Shown here: piece after piece, positions 43,101 through 62,929 of the stretch
Position numbering within the stretch: the first letter of the stretch is position 1
Layout: each line of letters opens with the position of its first letter
Position numbers and translations under genes: made by a program
Origin: Escherichia phage vB_EcoM-RPN226
DNA length: 64,000 nt
Sequence record: OL770073.2
Strand: one strand, 5' to 3'
Notes under the pieces: model-generated
Told to the model about the DNA's origin: nothing
The model's database searches: none
The model's input: only the letters and a program-made list of their open reading frames with translations

Positions 43101-43694
43101 ATGAACACACTGAAGAAAATTGTTGAGTTTATTCGCACTAAACTTGGTTCTGCTATGGCTAAAAATCTATCTGTTGAAGAACAGTATACTGCTGCAGCAG
43201 CAAAACTTCTTGATAAAATTAAAGACCTAAAAACTGCTTCTGTTAAATCTATTAATGAAGAAAAACGTATTCGTGAACTTGTTATCGAAAAGAATCGACA
43301 AGCCGAATCAAAAGAGCGTGAAATTCGCAAACTTCTTTCCGAAGGTCAAGATGTAACAATGCATGCTAAGCTCGGTTTACTATATCGTCGAACAGCTGAG
43401 CAGTTGACTACTAAAGCTGATGGTTATGCTGAAATGCGAATTGAAATCGCCAAGAAAGTAGTTGAGTTAGATGATGCTCGTCAAGAACTTGCAGTTAAAT
43501 TGGAATATATCCGTGAAACTCGTGCGGCAAATGCCCTTGGAATTAGTACTGCCGATGATGTAGTTGAAATTGCAGCACTGACTAAGGTTGATATTGAAGA
43601 TACCCTTGCTCGAGTTGAAACCTTTAATGGTAATATTTCCGGGGTTGAAACTACCTCTGCCGATGTTCAGGAATACATTAATTCTCTGAAATAA
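43101..43694 (+). CDS. coiled-coil protein (possible PspA/IM30-like)
   Basis: 197 aa almost entirely heptad-like helical sequence; RBS aaggaaa; followed by hairpin terminator. Confidence 0.4.
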
Positions 43695-43700
43695 TGATAA

Positions 43701-43714
43701 GGGGCTTCGGCCCC
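43701..43714 (+). terminator. hairpin after coiled-coil protein gene
   Basis: GGGGC-TTCG-GCCCC; same 14-nt hairpin as downstream of gene 18; weak U-run. Confidence 0.45.
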
Positions 43715-43735
43715 TATTACTTGGAGTAAATAGGA

Positions 43736-44344
43736 ATGAAAATGCAAAGTGATTTCAATTCAATGTTTGAAGAGTTCCAAAGACATGTTGATGTTCCAGA
43801 CCAATTACTAAATGCTCTTAAACGTATGGCAAAAGGACGTAATTACTATTGGGGGTCTTCATATGAAACTGATGAAAGTCTTTCTGGAAGATTTTCTAGA
43901 GGTAAAAAGTCTTTAATACGTCCTGGAATACTTATTAACAGTATTGAATCAATTCATTCATTGACGTGTGATTTTGATGTTGAATTTACTGATTTCATTT
44001 CTCCTGAATGGACAGTTTGTTATTTAAACGACGATTTTGATTATCTCGGTGTTTATAGTTTAAGTGACGCATGGTTTAAACGTAACTTACAAAAGTCAAA
44101 TTTATTCTATATTGATACTACAGTAAAATTTCAGGGAAAGAAATATTTCTTTACTCTTATAGTTGATTCTGAAACGAAGCATGAAAATAAACGTATTCTT
44201 AGTAAAAGGAATATCTTGAATATTGTTGATGATCTTTTTGATAAATTCGTGGAAAATCCTAATTTTGAAAGCGATTTATTATTAGAAAAATTTGTTAAGG
44301 AATGTAGAGAATATGTCAAAGCCATCACTATACCTTCCAAGTAA
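43736..44344 (+). CDS. hypothetical protein
   Basis: 202-aa ORF with RBS ggagtaaatagga. Confidence 0.45.
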   Translation: MKMQSDFNSMFEEFQRHVDVPDQLLNALKRMAKGRNYYWGSSYETDESLSGRFSRGKKSLIRPGILINSIESIHSLTCDFDVEFTDFISPEWTVCYLNDDFDYLGVYSLSDAWFKRNLQKSNLFYIDTTVKFQGKKYFFTLIVDSETKHENKRILSKRNILNIVDDLFDKFVENPNFESDLLLEKFVKECREYVKAITIPSK

Positions 44345-44705
44345 ACCTGTGAAGTATGAATTAAAGCGCCAGCTAATTCCTACCGATGTATTAATGGGTC
44401 CTGTGGTAGCTGTATCATTTGTAATTCTATTGATTGCTGGAATGGTTATAGACGTTATGACAGATATTGAATCTGACGTAATATTTGGAGCAACGTTAAT
44501 TCTTCCATTAGCAGTTCCATTTTTATTGGTACCTGTAAATTGGGTAGGATATTGGTATCAAGGAAGGCATTATCGTAAACGTGTACGTGAATGGAAAGCT
44601 CAGTGTAAAAAGATTAAAAAGGAACACCAGCTTAAACTAAATATGTATGAATTTAATGAAATTATGAAATTTGTTAAGGAATCACGATGCAAAAGCCAAA
44701 ACTAA
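44313..44705 (+). CDS. small membrane protein
   Basis: two predicted TM helices; start chosen at MSKPSLY, uncertain. Confidence 0.4.
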   Translation: MSKPSLYLPSKPVKYELKRQLIPTDVLMGPVVAVSFVILLIAGMVIDVMTDIESDVIFGATLILPLAVPFLLVPVNWVGYWYQGRHYRKRVREWKAQCKKIKKEHQLKLNMYEFNEIMKFVKESRCKSQN

Positions 44706-45049
44706 ATAAAGTCAAATATTCTTTTTCTGAGTCATTTTTAATTTTTGCTGTGGCGTTGGCTGCAGCTCTTGCGGGTAGTCTTTTTGGATTGTTAATTGAC
44801 TGTCTTATTTTAAACATCGACGGCACAGTAAATATAACAGAAGTTTGGAGTGAACTTCGTTTTACTATAGCGATTTCATTATTTTCATTCTTTGGCACCA
44901 TGCTATTTTTTCATTATGATAATTTTAAAATAAATTGGCAAAGAAAAAAGGATTACAAAATACAATTAAAAGAATATAATAGCTACATGTCTTATATTGA
45001 AAATGAATCAATGAAAGAGTTTGTGATTGATTGCAGGAAATTAAAATGA
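44687..45049 (+). CDS. small membrane protein
   Basis: 120 aa with hydrophobic helices, overlaps neighbours. Confidence 0.4.
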   Translation: MQKPKLNKVKYSFSESFLIFAVALAAALAGSLFGLLIDCLILNIDGTVNITEVWSELRFTIAISLFSFFGTMLFFHYDNFKINWQRKKDYKIQLKEYNSYMSYIENESMKEFVIDCRKLK

Positions 45050-45486
45050 AAACATTATCAGCTGGTATTATCTTTATGACAGAAGATAAAGATTTATTTA
45101 TGGGTCGGGTTACTGGTTCTCGTAAGCCTGGAATGATGGCACATCGCTGGGATATTCCAAAGGGCCATGTAGAAAATTCTGATTTAAGCGCATTAGATGC
45201 AGCACGAAGAGAATGTTTAGAAGAGACTGGTTTTAACAATTATAATCCAGGCCTTCTAGAAGACCTAGGTGTATTTAAATATTCTAGTAATAAAGACTTA
45301 CAGTTATTTTATTATACGATTCCAGTAGAGCATGAGATGTTTAGAAATTGCCATTGCGAGTCTTATTTTGAAAATAAAGATGGTGTTATGATTCCAGAGA
45401 TGGATGCTTTTGCTCTTATTCCTCGTACCCAGTGGCAATATGTGATGGGTCCTTCACTTTATCGAATAATGAACAGCCTCTTTTAA
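45031..45486 (+). CDS. nudE: Nudix hydrolase NudE
   Basis: 151 aa with Nudix box GHVENSDLSALDAARRECLEETGF; directly upstream of e. Confidence 0.85.
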   Translation: MQEIKMKTLSAGIIFMTEDKDLFMGRVTGSRKPGMMAHRWDIPKGHVENSDLSALDAARRECLEETGFNNYNPGLLEDLGVFKYSSNKDLQLFYYTIPVEHEMFRNCHCESYFENKDGVMIPEMDAFALIPRTQWQYVMGPSLYRIMNSLF

Positions 45487-46289
<803 letters not shown>

Positions 46290-46290
46290 T

Positions 46291-46320
46291 GTTTACTTCC
46301 TCCAAGGACTTTGATACTAT
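46291..46320 (+). promoter_or_regulatory. early promoter upstream of denV remnant
   Basis: GTTTAC at 46291-46296 and GATACTAT at 46313-46320. Confidence 0.55.
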
Positions 46321-46347
46321 ACATTCATCAACTACTTGGAGGAAATT

Positions 46348-46422
46348 ATGACTCGTATCAATTTAACAACTTCAGAATTATTTCTGGTGGTAAGGCTTAA
46401 ACAGTTTACGCTTAAGTATTAA
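46348..46422 (+). pseudogene. denV: denV (endonuclease V) remnant: first codons only
   Basis: early promoter plus RBS GGAGG plus ATG encoding MTRINLT (T4 DenV N-terminus), then divergence and a stop after 24 codons. Confidence 0.5.
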
Positions 46423-46433
46423 TATGATATAAT
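46403..46433 (+). promoter_or_regulatory. candidate early promoter for IPIII-like gene
   Basis: GTTTAC at 46403-46408 and TATAAT at 46428-46433 (19-nt spacer, weaker). Confidence 0.4.
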
Positions 46434-46463
46434 TACTCTATCAAAACAAACAAGGAAACAAAA

Positions 46464-47060
46464 ATGAAAACGTATCAAGAATTTATCGCCGAAGCTTCTG
46501 TAGGAAAGGTCCAAGGCATTAATAAAGATGAGTGGACTTACCGAGGAAACGGCTTTGACAACCCAGGAAACGGCTTTGACCCTAAAACAGCCCCTATTGA
46601 ACGGTATTTAGCTACAAAGGCTTCCGACTTTAAAGCTTTCGCCTGGAAAGGACTTCGCTGGCGTACCGACCTAAATATTGAAGTTGACGGACTTAAATTT
46701 GCTCATATTGAAGATGTTGTTGCTAGTAACTTGGACGCAGCTTTTGTTAAAGCTGACTTTGACCTTCGTCGCTGGAATTTAAAACTGTTCTCTAAACAGA
46801 AAGGTCCTGTGTTTGTGCCTAAAGCTGGTAAATGGGTTATTGATAATAAATTAGCTAAGGCTGTCAACTACGCTGGTCTTGAATTCGCCAAGCACAAATC
46901 ATCATGGAAAGGTCTTGATGCAATGGCTTTCCGTAAAGAATTTGCCGATGTTATGGCTAAAGGCGGCTTTAAGGCAGAAATAGACACCTCTAAAGGTATG
47001 TTTAAGGACGCTAATGTTCAGTACGCTTATGCCGTTGCTAATGCAGCCCGTGGTAATTAA
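46464..47060 (+). CDS. ipIII: internal protein (IPIII-like, capsid-targeted)
   Basis: 198 aa, CTS MKTYQEFIAEA. Confidence 0.65.
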   Translation: MKTYQEFIAEASVGKVQGINKDEWTYRGNGFDNPGNGFDPKTAPIERYLATKASDFKAFAWKGLRWRTDLNIEVDGLKFAHIEDVVASNLDAAFVKADFDLRRWNLKLFSKQKGPVFVPKAGKWVIDNKLAKAVNYAGLEFAKHKSSWKGLDAMAFRKEFADVMAKGGFKAEIDTSKGMFKDANVQYAYAVANAARGN

Positions 47061-47237
47061 TAAGGCCTATACTTAGGCCTATTTACATTCAAATAACATG
47101 GGAACAACCTGGACCTCATGATTCTATGAGGGATTCCCGCCAACCTGTAATAAGGTCGAGCCCAAGTGCGGTAATGGGTAAATACAGAAATGGACAATTC
47201 ACGCGCCATGGAATGGCCCAAATTTAGAGAGAATAAA

Positions 47238-47777
47238 ATGAGAACATTTTTAACTGGTCCTTATCTATCCCTGATGAATGCTTTTACACACCATTCTGAT
47301 GCTAGAGTAGAAGAAATTTGTAAGAACGGTTATGCCCCACCATTTGAAGACGTACTCAAGCAGTACTGTACACTTCGTTTAGACGGCGGCAGACAATCAG
47401 GTAAATCGACTGCAGTAACTAATTTTGCTGTTAATTGGCTGCACGACGGTGGAACAGTTATTGTTCTTTCTAATACTTCAGCTTATGCTAAAATTTCTGC
47501 TGGCAACATTAAAAAAGAATTTTCTCGTTATTCTAGCGATGATATTAGATTCCGTTTATTTACTGATTCTGTCCGTAGTTTTATTGGCAATGAAGGTTCT
47601 AAATTCCGCGGATTAACGCTTTCTCGTATTCTGTATATAATTGACGAGCCTATTAAAGCTCCTGATATGGATAAGATTTACAATGTCCATATTAAAGCAA
47701 TACAGCACTGCTGCAAAAGCAAATATTGCATCGGCGGTATTGCTCGTCCTCAATTTTTTGTGATTGGAATGCAATGA
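47238..47777 (+). CDS. small P-loop NTPase-like protein
   Basis: Walker A-like GGRQSGKST and Walker B-like ILYIIDEP; start at ATG 47238 after AGAGAGA. Confidence 0.45.
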   Translation: MRTFLTGPYLSLMNAFTHHSDARVEEICKNGYAPPFEDVLKQYCTLRLDGGRQSGKSTAVTNFAVNWLHDGGTVIVLSNTSAYAKISAGNIKKEFSRYSSDDIRFRLFTDSVRSFIGNEGSKFRGLTLSRILYIIDEPIKAPDMDKIYNVHIKAIQHCCKSKYCIGGIARPQFFVIGMQ

Positions 47778-48082
47778 TGACCACTATTGAAGTTTTTGAG
47801 TATTGTTATAACAGCCCAGTATGCAATAAAAGGGCTGTTGTAGAAAATTACGAGATTTACCATTTTAAACCTAAACGATATCGTTTGACTAAAGGTCCGT
47901 TTGCAGGGCAGCAGGTTCTTTGTACTGCTCCTAATGCAAGATTAATGAATAAAATTCCATATTTTACCATGGAATTTATTGATGGGCCTTTTAAAGGACT
48001 AATCACACAGAGTTTAATGGCATATGATTCTGAGCCATTTTTAATTAAAGAGCAATCTTGGATAAATTTATTTTCTAATTGA
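47774..48082 (+). CDS. hypothetical protein
   Basis: ATGATGA overlap with previous gene; Cys-rich N-terminus. Confidence 0.4.
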
Positions 48083-48090
48083 GAGGTTAT

Positions 48091-48453
48091 ATGAAAGCAT
48101 ATCAAATTCTTGAAGGCACGCATAAAGGTACTATTTATTTTGAAGACGGTATTCAAGCACGAATTATTGTCTCTAAAACCTTTAAAGAGGACTCTTTTGT
48201 AGACCCAGAAATTTTCTATGGTTTGCATGCCCGTGAAATTGAAATTGAGCAACAGCCTACAGTTAAAATTGAAGGTGGTCAACACCTGAACGTTAACGTT
48301 CTGCGCCGTGAAACTCTGGAAGATGCAGTTAAGCATCCAGAAAAATATCCGCAGCTGACCATCCGTGTATCCGGTTATGCAGTTCGCTTTAACTCTCTGA
48401 CTCCGGAACAGCAGCGCGACGTTATCGCTCGTACCTTTACCGAGAGTTTGTAA
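48091..48453 (+). CDS. autonomous glycyl radical cofactor GrcA/YfiD-like protein (T4 Y06I-like)
   Basis: C-terminal 60 aa including glycyl-radical motif RVSGYAV matches E. coli GrcA as I remember it; start ATG 48091 after GAGAGG. Confidence 0.85.
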
Positions 48454-48674
48454 TGGCAAAGATAATTATTGAAGGTTCTGAAGATGTGCTAAATGCTTTC
48501 GCCGAGTGGTTTAGTAATTCAGGCGAACAGCAATTTAATGAAGCGTGGAACATGGGTGATATTAGTGGAATTTATCCTACGACAGAAATTTCTGTTCAGG
48601 GATATGGCATTCATGAACCTATTCATTTAGTTGAATATGATTTGGGTACTGGTGAGGAAGTAAAATATGATTGA
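48453..48674 (+). CDS. hypothetical protein
   Basis: 73 aa, TAATG coupling to upstream gene. Confidence 0.4.
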   Translation: MAKIIIEGSEDVLNAFAEWFSNSGEQQFNEAWNMGDISGIYPTTEISVQGYGIHEPIHLVEYDLGTGEEVKYD

Positions 48675-48933
48675 AGATATTAAGGGTTATAAGCCACATA
48701 CTGAAGAGAAAATCGGTAAAGTGAATGCTATCAAAGATGCTGAAGTTCGTTTAGGACTTATTTTTGATGCTTTATATGACGAATTCTGGGAAGTGCTAAA
48801 TAATTGCGAAGACTATGAATTCGCGAAGAATTATGCTGAAAGCATCGATCAGTTAACTATTGCTAAAACGAAGCTCAAAGAAGCCAGTATGTGGGCTTGT
48901 CGCGCAGTGTTTCAACCAGAGGAAAAATATTAA
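48667..48933 (+). CDS. hypothetical protein; positional candidate for vs.4 (Acb2-like cyclic-oligonucleotide sponge)
   Basis: 88-aa acidic helical protein; fifth small ORF between the IP locus and regB, the position vs.4 holds in T4; assignment positional only. Confidence 0.4.
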
Positions 48934-49211
48934 TGGCTCAATTAAGCGCAGGGTTTGGTTATGAGTATTATACTGCCCCTCGTCGTGTATCTGTTGCTCC
49001 TAAGAAAATTCAAAGTCTTGATGACTTCCAGGAAGTAGTCCGTAAAGCTTTCCAGGACTATGCACGTTATCTTAAAGAAGATTCGCAGGACTGTCTCGAA
49101 GAAGATGAAATTGCTTACTATGAGCAGCGTCTTGAACAGCTTAAAAACCTACATGAGGTTCGTGCAGAAGTTACAAAGTCTATGAATAAATTGATTAGAT
49201 TTAAAGAATAA
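48933..49211 (+). CDS. hypothetical protein
   Basis: start MAQLSAGF overlapping previous stop (TAATG). Confidence 0.4.
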
Positions 49212-49213
49212 CT

Positions 49214-49253
49214 GTTTACTTTTCCTCTTGACTGTGGTATAATTTTTCTATCA
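49214..49253 (+). promoter_or_regulatory. early promoter for regB
   Basis: GTTTAC 49214-49219, TGgTATAAT with TATAAT at 49248-49253. Confidence 0.65.
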
Positions 49254-49270
49254 GTTAAGAGGAGAATAAC

Positions 49271-49732
49271 ATGACTATCAACACAGAAGTTTTTATCCGT
49301 CGAAATAAACTCCGTCGTCACTTTGAGTCGGAGTTTCGTCAAATTAACAATGAGATTCGTGAGGCATCAAAAGCAGCAGGGGTCTCATCGTTTCATCTAA
49401 AATATTCTCAGCATCTTCTTGATCGTGCAATTCAACGGGAGATCGATGAGACATATGTTTTTGAATTATTCCATAAAATAAAAGACCATGTTTTAGAAGT
49501 TAATGAATTCCTGAGTATGCCTCCGCGTCCTGACATTGACGAGGATTTTATTGATGGGGTTGAATATCGTCCTGGGCGTTTAGAAATCACAGATGGAAAT
49601 CTTTGGCTTGGATTTACAGTTTGTAAACCTAATGCGAAGTTCAAAGACCCGTCACTTCAATGTAGGATGGCCATTATCAACAGTCGTCGTTTACCAGGAA
49701 AGGCTTCTAAAGCAGTAATTAAAACTCAATGA
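49271..49732 (+). CDS. regB: endoribonuclease RegB
   Basis: 153 aa, matches T4 RegB length and position; early promoter with TATAAT at 49248. Confidence 0.8.
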   Translation: MTINTEVFIRRNKLRRHFESEFRQINNEIREASKAAGVSSFHLKYSQHLLDRAIQREIDETYVFELFHKIKDHVLEVNEFLSMPPRPDIDEDFIDGVEYRPGRLEITDGNLWLGFTVCKPNAKFKDPSLQCRMAIINSRRLPGKASKAVIKTQ

Positions 49733-49739
49733 GGTAAGC

Positions 49740-50285
49740 ATGAGAAAAGCACTACTCGCTGGTCTATTGGCCATTTCAATGATGGCACATAGCTCCGAGC
49801 ATACTTTCAGTAATGTCCAACTCGATAACATGCGTTACGCGTATCAATTCGGGGAACAATTTTCTAAGGATGGAAAATATAAAACACACAAAAATATCCA
49901 CAAGAGCGGATTAGGTCATATAATGGCTGCTATTTTATGGCAAGAAAGCTCTGCCGGAGTTAATTTAAAATCTAAGCCAAAGCATCATGCCTACGGAATG
50001 TTCCAAAATTATTTGCCGACCATGCGTGCAAGAGTTAAGGAACTTGGTTATAATATGACCGATGCCGAAATAAAAAGAATGTTGAATAAACGGTCCAATT
50101 CAGCTTCCTGGGCGTACATTGAACTTTCTTATTGGTTAAATATACATAAGGGTGATATAAGAAAGGCAATATCCTCTTATAATTCGGGATGGAATGTTAA
50201 AGCAGGTTCTAAATATGCTTCTGAAGTCCTAGAAAAGGCTAATTACCTTAAAAATAATAAACTTTTGGAAATAGTAAATGACTAA
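49740..50285 (+). CDS. secreted lytic transglycosylase-like protein
   Basis: N-terminal signal peptide; SLT-like motifs WQESS, GMFQ, SYNSG. Confidence 0.5.
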   Translation: MRKALLAGLLAISMMAHSSEHTFSNVQLDNMRYAYQFGEQFSKDGKYKTHKNIHKSGLGHIMAAILWQESSAGVNLKSKPKHHAYGMFQNYLPTMRARVKELGYNMTDAEIKRMLNKRSNSASWAYIELSYWLNIHKGDIRKAISSYNSGWNVKAGSKYASEVLEKANYLKNNKLLEIVND

Positions 50286-62455: not shown

Positions 62456-62929
62456 ATGTTATTGACTGGCAAATTGTACAAAGAAGAAAAACAAAAATTT
62501 TATAATGCACAAAACGGTAAATGCTTAATTTGCCAACGAGAACTAAATCCTGATGTTCAAGCTAATCACCTTGACCATGACCATGAATTAAATGGACCGA
62601 AAGCTGGAAAGGTACGTGGATTGCTATGTAATCTCTGTAATGCTGCAGAAGGTCAAATGAAGCATAAATTCAATCGTTCTGGCTTAAAGGGACAAGGTGT
62701 TGATTATCTTGAATGGCTAGAAAATTTACTTACTTATTTAAAATCCGATTACACCCAAAATAATATTCACCCTAACTTCGTTGGAGATAAATCAAAGGAA
62801 TTTTCTCGTTTAGGAAAAGAGGAAATGATGGCTGAGATGCTTCAAAGAGGATTTGAATATAATGAATCTGACACTAAAACACAATTAATAGCTTCATTTA
62901 AGAAGCAGCTTAGAAAGAGTTTAAAATGA
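62456..62929 (+). CDS. 49: endonuclease VII (Holliday junction resolvase)
   Basis: 157 aa, zinc-binding CLICQ...CNLCN and HLDHDH motif; matches T4 gp49. Confidence 0.9.
   Translation: MLLTGKLYKEEKQKFYNAQNGKCLICQRELNPDVQANHLDHDHELNGPKAGKVRGLLCNLCNAAEGQMKHKFNRSGLKGQGVDYLEWLENLLTYLKSDYTQNNIHPNFVGDKSKEFSRLGKEEMMAEMLQRGFEYNESDTKTQLIASFKKQLRKSLK

Follow-up and report, generated by a model that had tools for sequence, protein, structure and literature searches.

A denV remnant between the internal-protein genes of a T4-like phage, probably left by a deletion between short direct repeats

The stretch of DNA analysed here, called the window throughout, covers 64 kb of the genome (∼166 kb) of a T4-like phage (Tequatrovirus). 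Over 20 kb, its best matches in the phage collection reach only 94–96% identity, and for this reason the source is identified as a phage other than T2, T4 or T6. The locus of interest lies downstream of the lysozyme gene e and consists of a short scar between two intact genes for internal proteins (IPs), IPa on the left and an ipIII-like gene on the right (Table 1). The IPa protein is 100% identical to the product of the gene located 5′ of denV in phage 236Ecol005PP and matches phrog_3499 ('internal head protein') at 1.2e-46. The ipIII-like protein is 90.4% identical to T4 IPIII and matches phrog_5341 at 2.7e-114, and the domain PF26861 (Phage_T4_IpIII) is recorded on an identical ipIII gene in a Logan assembly. 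The PHROG matches of both flanking IP genes, and of IPb, the IP gene that is deleted in the source phage, are all to internal head or virion proteins. A capsid-targeting N-terminal motif (MKTYQEFIAE or a close variant) is present in IPa, in the ipIII product (MKTYQEFIAE) and in the IPb of relatives (MKMYQEFIAE); the role of this targeting signal in the internal proteins of T4 has been described (PMC12373910). IP genes of the flanking type encode injected inhibitors of type IV restriction enzymes and are variable among T-even phages (PMC12373910), a variability consistent with plasticity of the denV/IP block.

Several features of the neighbourhood were recorded besides the scar. The e allele is unusually divergent, with at most 92.4% nucleotide identity to any of 711 matching phage records, whereas the DNA that flanks it reaches 96–99%. 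Two T4 late-promoter motifs, TATAAATA, are found at 45489 and 45502, 13 nt apart and immediately 5′ of e, and could also feed the e–IP unit. The vs.8 homologue is split in two frames, with residues 1–32 encoded at 47126–47221 and the rest at 47190–47777. This split is common to most relatives, whereas T4 has a single 219-aa ORF; either a frameshift has occurred in T4 or in the others, or the N-terminal extension is non-coding. Folding of the GC-rich segment 47060–47245 was not significant (z = −1.2), and an Rfam scan of 45400–47800 returned chance-level matches only.

Table 1. Features of the locus between nudE and the vs.8 and vs.7 homologues (positions in the window).
Feature	Position	Strand	Details
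nudE	45031-45486	+	
Lysozyme gene e	45523-46011	+	
IPa, gene for a 93-aa internal head protein	46008..46289	+	Intact left neighbour of the scar
Predicted early-type promoter of denV, retained	46291..46320	+	GTTTAC 46291-46296; 18-nt spacer; TGaTACTAT 46312-46320
Hairpin with a 10-bp stem	46297..46344	+	46297-46306 pairs with 46335-46344
denV codons 1-7 (MTRINLT), sole remainder of the gene	46348..46368	+	Alignment to the intact denV of relatives ends there
Chimeric 24-codon ORF plus TAA	46348..46422	+	denV codons 1-7, then 17 codons of the IPb 3′ end
Deletion junction	46362..46368	.	Single copy of TTTAACA (7-nt direct repeat)
3′ end of the deleted IPb	46369..46400	+	Frame of the 86-aa allele ends in GGKA, stop codon at 46398-46400
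Predicted early-type promoter, native to the next IP gene	46404..46433	+	GTTTAC 46404-46409; TGaTATAAT 46425-46433
ipIII-like gene for a 198-aa internal virion protein	46464..47060	+	Intact right neighbour of the scar
Terminator-like GC hairpin	47063..47080	+	Closes the e–IP transcription unit
vs.8 and vs.7 homologues	after the 47063-47080 hairpin	+	

An earlier note on this DNA had described an early promoter, a Shine–Dalgarno sequence GGAGG and an ATG in front of a shortened denV. All three were found, the Shine–Dalgarno sequence at 46338–46342 and the ATG at 46348, with the −10 hexamer of the promoter reading TACTAT, not a perfect TATAAT. The same GTTTAC-N18-TGaTACTAT arrangement precedes denV in T4, and the promoter segment, which is identical in phage Lutter, is annotated 'promoter' there. 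The note had also placed a second promoter within the remnant, and this one (sigma-70 scan score 10/12, with an upstream TG) does precede the ipIII-like gene. It was not made by the deletion described below, being present inside the 3′ end of IPb in the denV+ relatives, as in every relative aligned, and annotated 'promoter' by the depositors of Lutter; these alignments identify it as the native promoter of the next IP gene. Both sites fit the T4-type early promoter, with GTTTAC at −35, a spacer of 17–18 nt, a TATAAT-like −10 and often a TG before it. They are predicted promoters, presumably active, and the deletion only brought two pre-existing elements within 113 nt of each other.

The denV Shine–Dalgarno sequence sits in the 3′ arm of a hairpin with a predicted fold of −17.8 kcal/mol (z = −4.8). 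T4 has a hairpin at the same place (NC_000866 65356–65415, minus strand), alike in shape and different in stem sequence, that is, with covariation. Sequestering of the ribosome-binding site is known at T4 gene e, and the denV hairpin resembles that case. The 5′ arm of the hairpin is located in the spacer of the denV promoter, downstream of the −35 and upstream of the −10 element; only transcripts reading through from upstream could therefore form the structure.

The sequence MTRINLT had been named in the earlier note as the N-terminus of DenV, and correctly so: T4 DenV (NC_000866) begins with MTRINLTLVSEL, and MTRINLT is exactly its first seven residues. At the protein level the match of the remnant to DenV spans 7–12 residues, with a tblastn E value of 6.7 that is no better than chance. 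The identification as denV is grounded instead in the synteny of the DNA. The left flank (46000–46368) is 96.8–98.8% identical to IPa plus the start of denV in 236Ecol005PP, HMD-9, PaulHMueller and JQD51. The right flank, from 46356 onwards, is 94–96% identical to the 3′ end of IPb plus the ipIII promoter in 236Ecol005PP, HMD-9 and PaulHMueller, while that of JQD51 realigns only from 46388. The alignments of the two flanks overlap in a short repeat only. By its orthologous position and its 5′ region up to codon 7, the remnant DNA descends from denV, and it has the layout of promoter, hairpin and Shine–Dalgarno sequence in common with T4 denV. Synteny with the denV+ relatives thus bears out the view that this is a genuine denV remnant whose regulatory front end was kept.

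The reading frame, translated as MTRINLTTSELFLVVRLKQFTLKY and followed by a stop codon, does end after 24 codons, as had been stated. It does not simply diverge from denV, as had also been stated: codon 7 of denV is fused to the tail of IPb by a deletion of 627/628 bp. The 17-residue tail follows the reading frame of the 91-aa IPb allele through the IPb 3′ end and equals the last 17 residues of that allele at 15/17 positions; tblastn of the tail gave 89% identity over IPb residues 73–91. This chimeric ORF came about by accident, as a side product of the deletion. Its 24-aa product has no Pfam or PHROG match and falls outside PF03013 (Pyr_excise) and phrog_1183, membership of which requires a significant profile match over a domain of ∼130 aa; in the same profile search the DenV of 236Ecol005PP, used as a control, matched the two families at 3.3e-14 and 2.4e-62, respectively. 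Catalysis by T4 endonuclease V relies on the N-terminal amine of Thr2 with Glu23, plus Arg22 and Arg26. The 24-aa ORF has Thr2 and Arg3, but its homology to DenV ends at residue 7, beyond which there is no DenV sequence, and its residue 23 is K, not Glu23.

The denV+ phages compared were 236Ecol005PP, HMD-9, PaulHMueller (Bas45) and Lutter, all close Tequatrovirus relatives, with the gene order e – IPa – denV (137 aa) – IPb (86 or 91 aa) – (IPc) – ipIII. Three of them, 236Ecol005PP, HMD-9 and PaulHMueller, resemble the source phage in the gene order around the scar, with flanks 95–99% identical, and differ from it in carrying an intact 137-aa DenV and an IPb of 86 or 91 aa; on this comparison they are taken to show the ancestral state of the locus. 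In the relatives, the segment missing from the source phage codes for a 137-aa protein with 91% identity to T4 DenV and with matches to Pyr_excise (PF03013) and phrog_1183, and for most of the internal head protein IPb, which in turn matches phrog_35655 and phrog_2667. The gap measures 628 bp against PaulHMueller and 627 bp against 236Ecol005PP, because the IPb alleles of these two references differ by one nucleotide. This 1-nt indel separates an 86-aa form ending in GGKA, the commoner one, from a 91-aa form ending in LKQFTLKY (compare our loci L001 2370–2651 versus L013 1469–1729, L004 and L003).

In PaulHMueller and 236Ecol005PP the heptanucleotide TTTAACA occurs at denV codons 5–7 and again ∼60 nt before the IPb stop. 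An exact 7-nt repeat therefore bounds the 628-bp segment at both ends, and one copy is kept in the source phage at the junction. A short direct repeat at both breakpoints with a single copy left is what distinguishes a microhomology deletion, although a 7-nt repeat in AT-rich DNA is not by itself statistically unusual. Illegitimate deletions in T4 are classically recognised by a short repeat of which one copy is left behind, and the deletions studied in rII are of this type. The denV scar is like the rII deletions in the copy that stays at the junction and differs from them in origin, those having been selected in the laboratory and the scar being a natural allele. We consider it highly probable that 46291–46433 was left as a scar when a single illegitimate deletion of ∼628 bp, mediated by microhomology, took place in a Tequatrovirus, and that the scar belongs to a phage without pyrimidine-dimer glycosylase.

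The course of events would have been as follows. In an ancestor with the order e – IPa – denV – IPb – ipIII, denV codons 8–137 would have been removed, together with roughly the first 70 codons of IPb, by recombination or by slippage of replication between the two TTTAACA repeats. Kept on the left would be the denV promoter, the ribosome-binding site and the hairpin in which it is buried, the ATG and seven denV codons; kept on the right, the tail of IPb carrying the native ipIII promoter. An ORF without Glu23 and the remaining fold would yield no pyrimidine-dimer glycosylase, and transcripts starting at the denV promoter would now simply run on into ipIII. The other possibility raised in the earlier note, a displacement of denV by an IP cassette, is rejected: the denV+ relatives have ipIII at the same position, and an IP gene, IPb, was destroyed while none was inserted.

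The exact junction, CGTATCAATTTAACAACTTC, had 0 matches in the viral contigs of IMG/VR. Positions 43464–50060 of the window (6597 bp), junction included, recur with 100% identity in an independent Logan assembly, that of SRR27297327. Among the records of the phage collection, only ECO07P2 (OP172785) carries the contiguous 180-nt scar. Its deletion junction and left flank are identical to those of the source phage, and the remnant is unannotated in its record; it differs by seven substitutions in the ∼100 nt to the right of the junction, and by an extra 104-aa IP gene (IPc) that follows the scar and precedes ipIII and that the source phage lacks. The two phages descend from one ancestral deletion, or else the same repeat was used twice. 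IPc lies between the scar or IPb and ipIII in ECO07P2 (L005 2674–2988) and PaulHMueller (L013 1793–2107), preceded by the same promoter and leader, which suggests that IP cassettes are gained and lost through these promoter/leader repeats.

We searched the window for DenV by tblastn, as the earlier note had proposed, and found no intact denV and no homologue elsewhere in its 64 kb. One candidate for a second denV-like gene, at 62768–62914 (tblastn E = 4.7e-4 in a search of the window only), was discarded: it belongs to gp49 endonuclease VII (62456–62929; PF02945 plus the dimerisation domain PF09124), for which BLASTP gave no DenV alignment. The weak tblastn alignment pairs DenV residues 56–101 with the C-terminal dimerisation domain of gp49. 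In the complete 166-kb genome of ECO07P2 there is no DenV match better than E = 1.3. Phages that bear DenV almost always have a single copy (1125 places in 1119 records), and in every Tequatrovirus inspected denV is located between e and vs.8. It is very likely that the source phage has lost denV altogether, and the loss of the pyrimidine-dimer glycosylase proposed in the earlier note is upheld as very probable by the absence of DenV from the window and from the ECO07P2 genome. The predicted UV sensitivity of the phage is close to that of T2 or of T4 v− mutants, and the phage would have to rely on the repair systems of the host and on its own recombination repair.

Loss of denV at this locus is not confined to the source phage and ECO07P2. 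HEMP5 has lost 517 bp, so that denV codon 31 runs into the IPb 3′ end; ZCEC14 has lost 572 bp, between approximately codon 38 and the ipIII promoter; and the class formed by Phaginator, G8, G4498, BF15 and Shinka has lost 310 bp, between codon 3 and approximately codon 105, with IPb intact. All of these resemble the source phage in having lost denV from the same locus by an internal deletion that kept the promoter and the start. Their breakpoints differ, and they are therefore independent events.

T2 and T6, by contrast, show neither a DenV homologue nor a denV promoter in the syntenic interval from e to vs.7. They are, like the source phage, Tequatroviruses without pyrimidine-dimer glycosylase, and unlike it they retain no trace of the gene or its promoter: the order is e – another IP – vs.8 in T2, whereas in T6 e leads directly to a regB-like gene. 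The T6 region (AP018814 60489–61506) goes from e straight to this gene, without ipII, ipIII, denV and vs.6–8, and that of T2 (AP018813 61427–63484) has a different, 157-aa ORF after e and then a vs.8 with a frameshift; neither record has reliable product names. The lack of denV at the T2 locus fits the classical observation that T2 is without the v function of T4. Streisinger in 1956 and Harm in 1963 reportedly found T2 to be about twice as UV-sensitive as T4, owing to this missing function. In the source phage the promoter, the ribosome-binding site and seven codons are still present, so its loss is recent and the mechanism still legible. By a rough count, 225–277 records carry a T4-type denV, versus ∼660 with a Tequatrovirus-like e gene, figures made imprecise by duplicate RefSeq/GenBank records and laboratory derivatives of T4; the gene is thus accessory and absent from many relatives. 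The literature searched for denV loss in T-even or Tequatrovirus phages contained no relevant report, the results being dominated by dengue virus.

Other explanations of the scar were weighed against a single deletion. The brevity of the protein match, with its chance-level E value, would suit a short ORF that merely starts with MTRINLT and is unrelated to denV. The probability of such a coincidence is close to nil, since ∼370 nt of upstream and start sequence are 97–99% identical to the denV 5′ region of the relatives and the promoter, hairpin and Shine–Dalgarno sequence are arranged as in T4 denV; the DNA alignments refute it. A denV that has moved, with an intact copy in the ∼100 kb outside the window and the scar as its old empty site, would agree with the extent of genome inspected (64 kb) and with the habit of T-even accessory genes to shift loci, T4 denV lying after ipII and the gene here between IPa and IPb. 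This is very improbable in view of the failure to find a match either in the window or in ECO07P2, which has the same junction, of the single copy in nearly all DenV-positive phage records and of the constant position of denV between e and vs.8 in the Tequatroviruses inspected. We give equally little credence to an artefact, be it an assembly error at the IP leaders and promoters, which are repeated sequences, or a deletion acquired during laboratory propagation. The near-identical 5′ ends and promoters of IP genes (36-nt repeats) can confuse assemblers, and T4-type phages readily throw deletions in culture. However, the junction lies in the TTTAACA repeat and not in a repeated IP leader, the Logan assembly of SRR27297327 gives an identical 6.6 kb, and ECO07P2, an independent isolate from another host, shares the junction; moreover, an origin of the deletion in the laboratory would leave the identity of the sequence unchanged.

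Somewhat less remote, though still improbable, is that the front end (promoter, hairpin, Shine–Dalgarno sequence and ATG) has been recruited by the downstream anti-restriction IP gene or genes, for which it would act as an early-expression or translated-leader module, with the 24-aa peptide or its translation being functional. If this were true, the scar would be functional rather than inert. The promoter, Shine–Dalgarno sequence and ATG are indeed kept in all four of the four independent deletion alleles, and the hairpin is conserved by covariation with T4. Yet retention of the 5′ end is the default outcome of an internal deletion and needs no selection to explain it. The remnant ORFs of the four alleles (9 to 46 codons) are wholly different in length and sequence, the tail of the present one already has two substitutions relative to IPb, and ipIII has a strong predicted promoter of its own 113 nt downstream, also in the denV+ relatives. 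Nothing requires a function for the front end or for the 24-aa peptide, the remnants of the four alleles sharing no coding sequence.

Taken together, these results describe the scar, on the reading as a microhomology deletion, as an ordinary and explained case of accessory-gene decay, a known kind of event in related phages that raises no new biological question. Annotations of the source phage and of ECO07P2 should list them as denV-negative, and both are expected to be UV-sensitive, a status that is relevant if such phages are produced, treated with UV or released for therapy. For the T-even phages, the scar is a clear and datable example of the loss of an accessory gene by short-repeat deletion, and it belongs to a denV/internal-protein block between e and vs.8 that has been repeatedly eroded, with no fewer than four independent denV deletion alleles, not counting T2 and T6.
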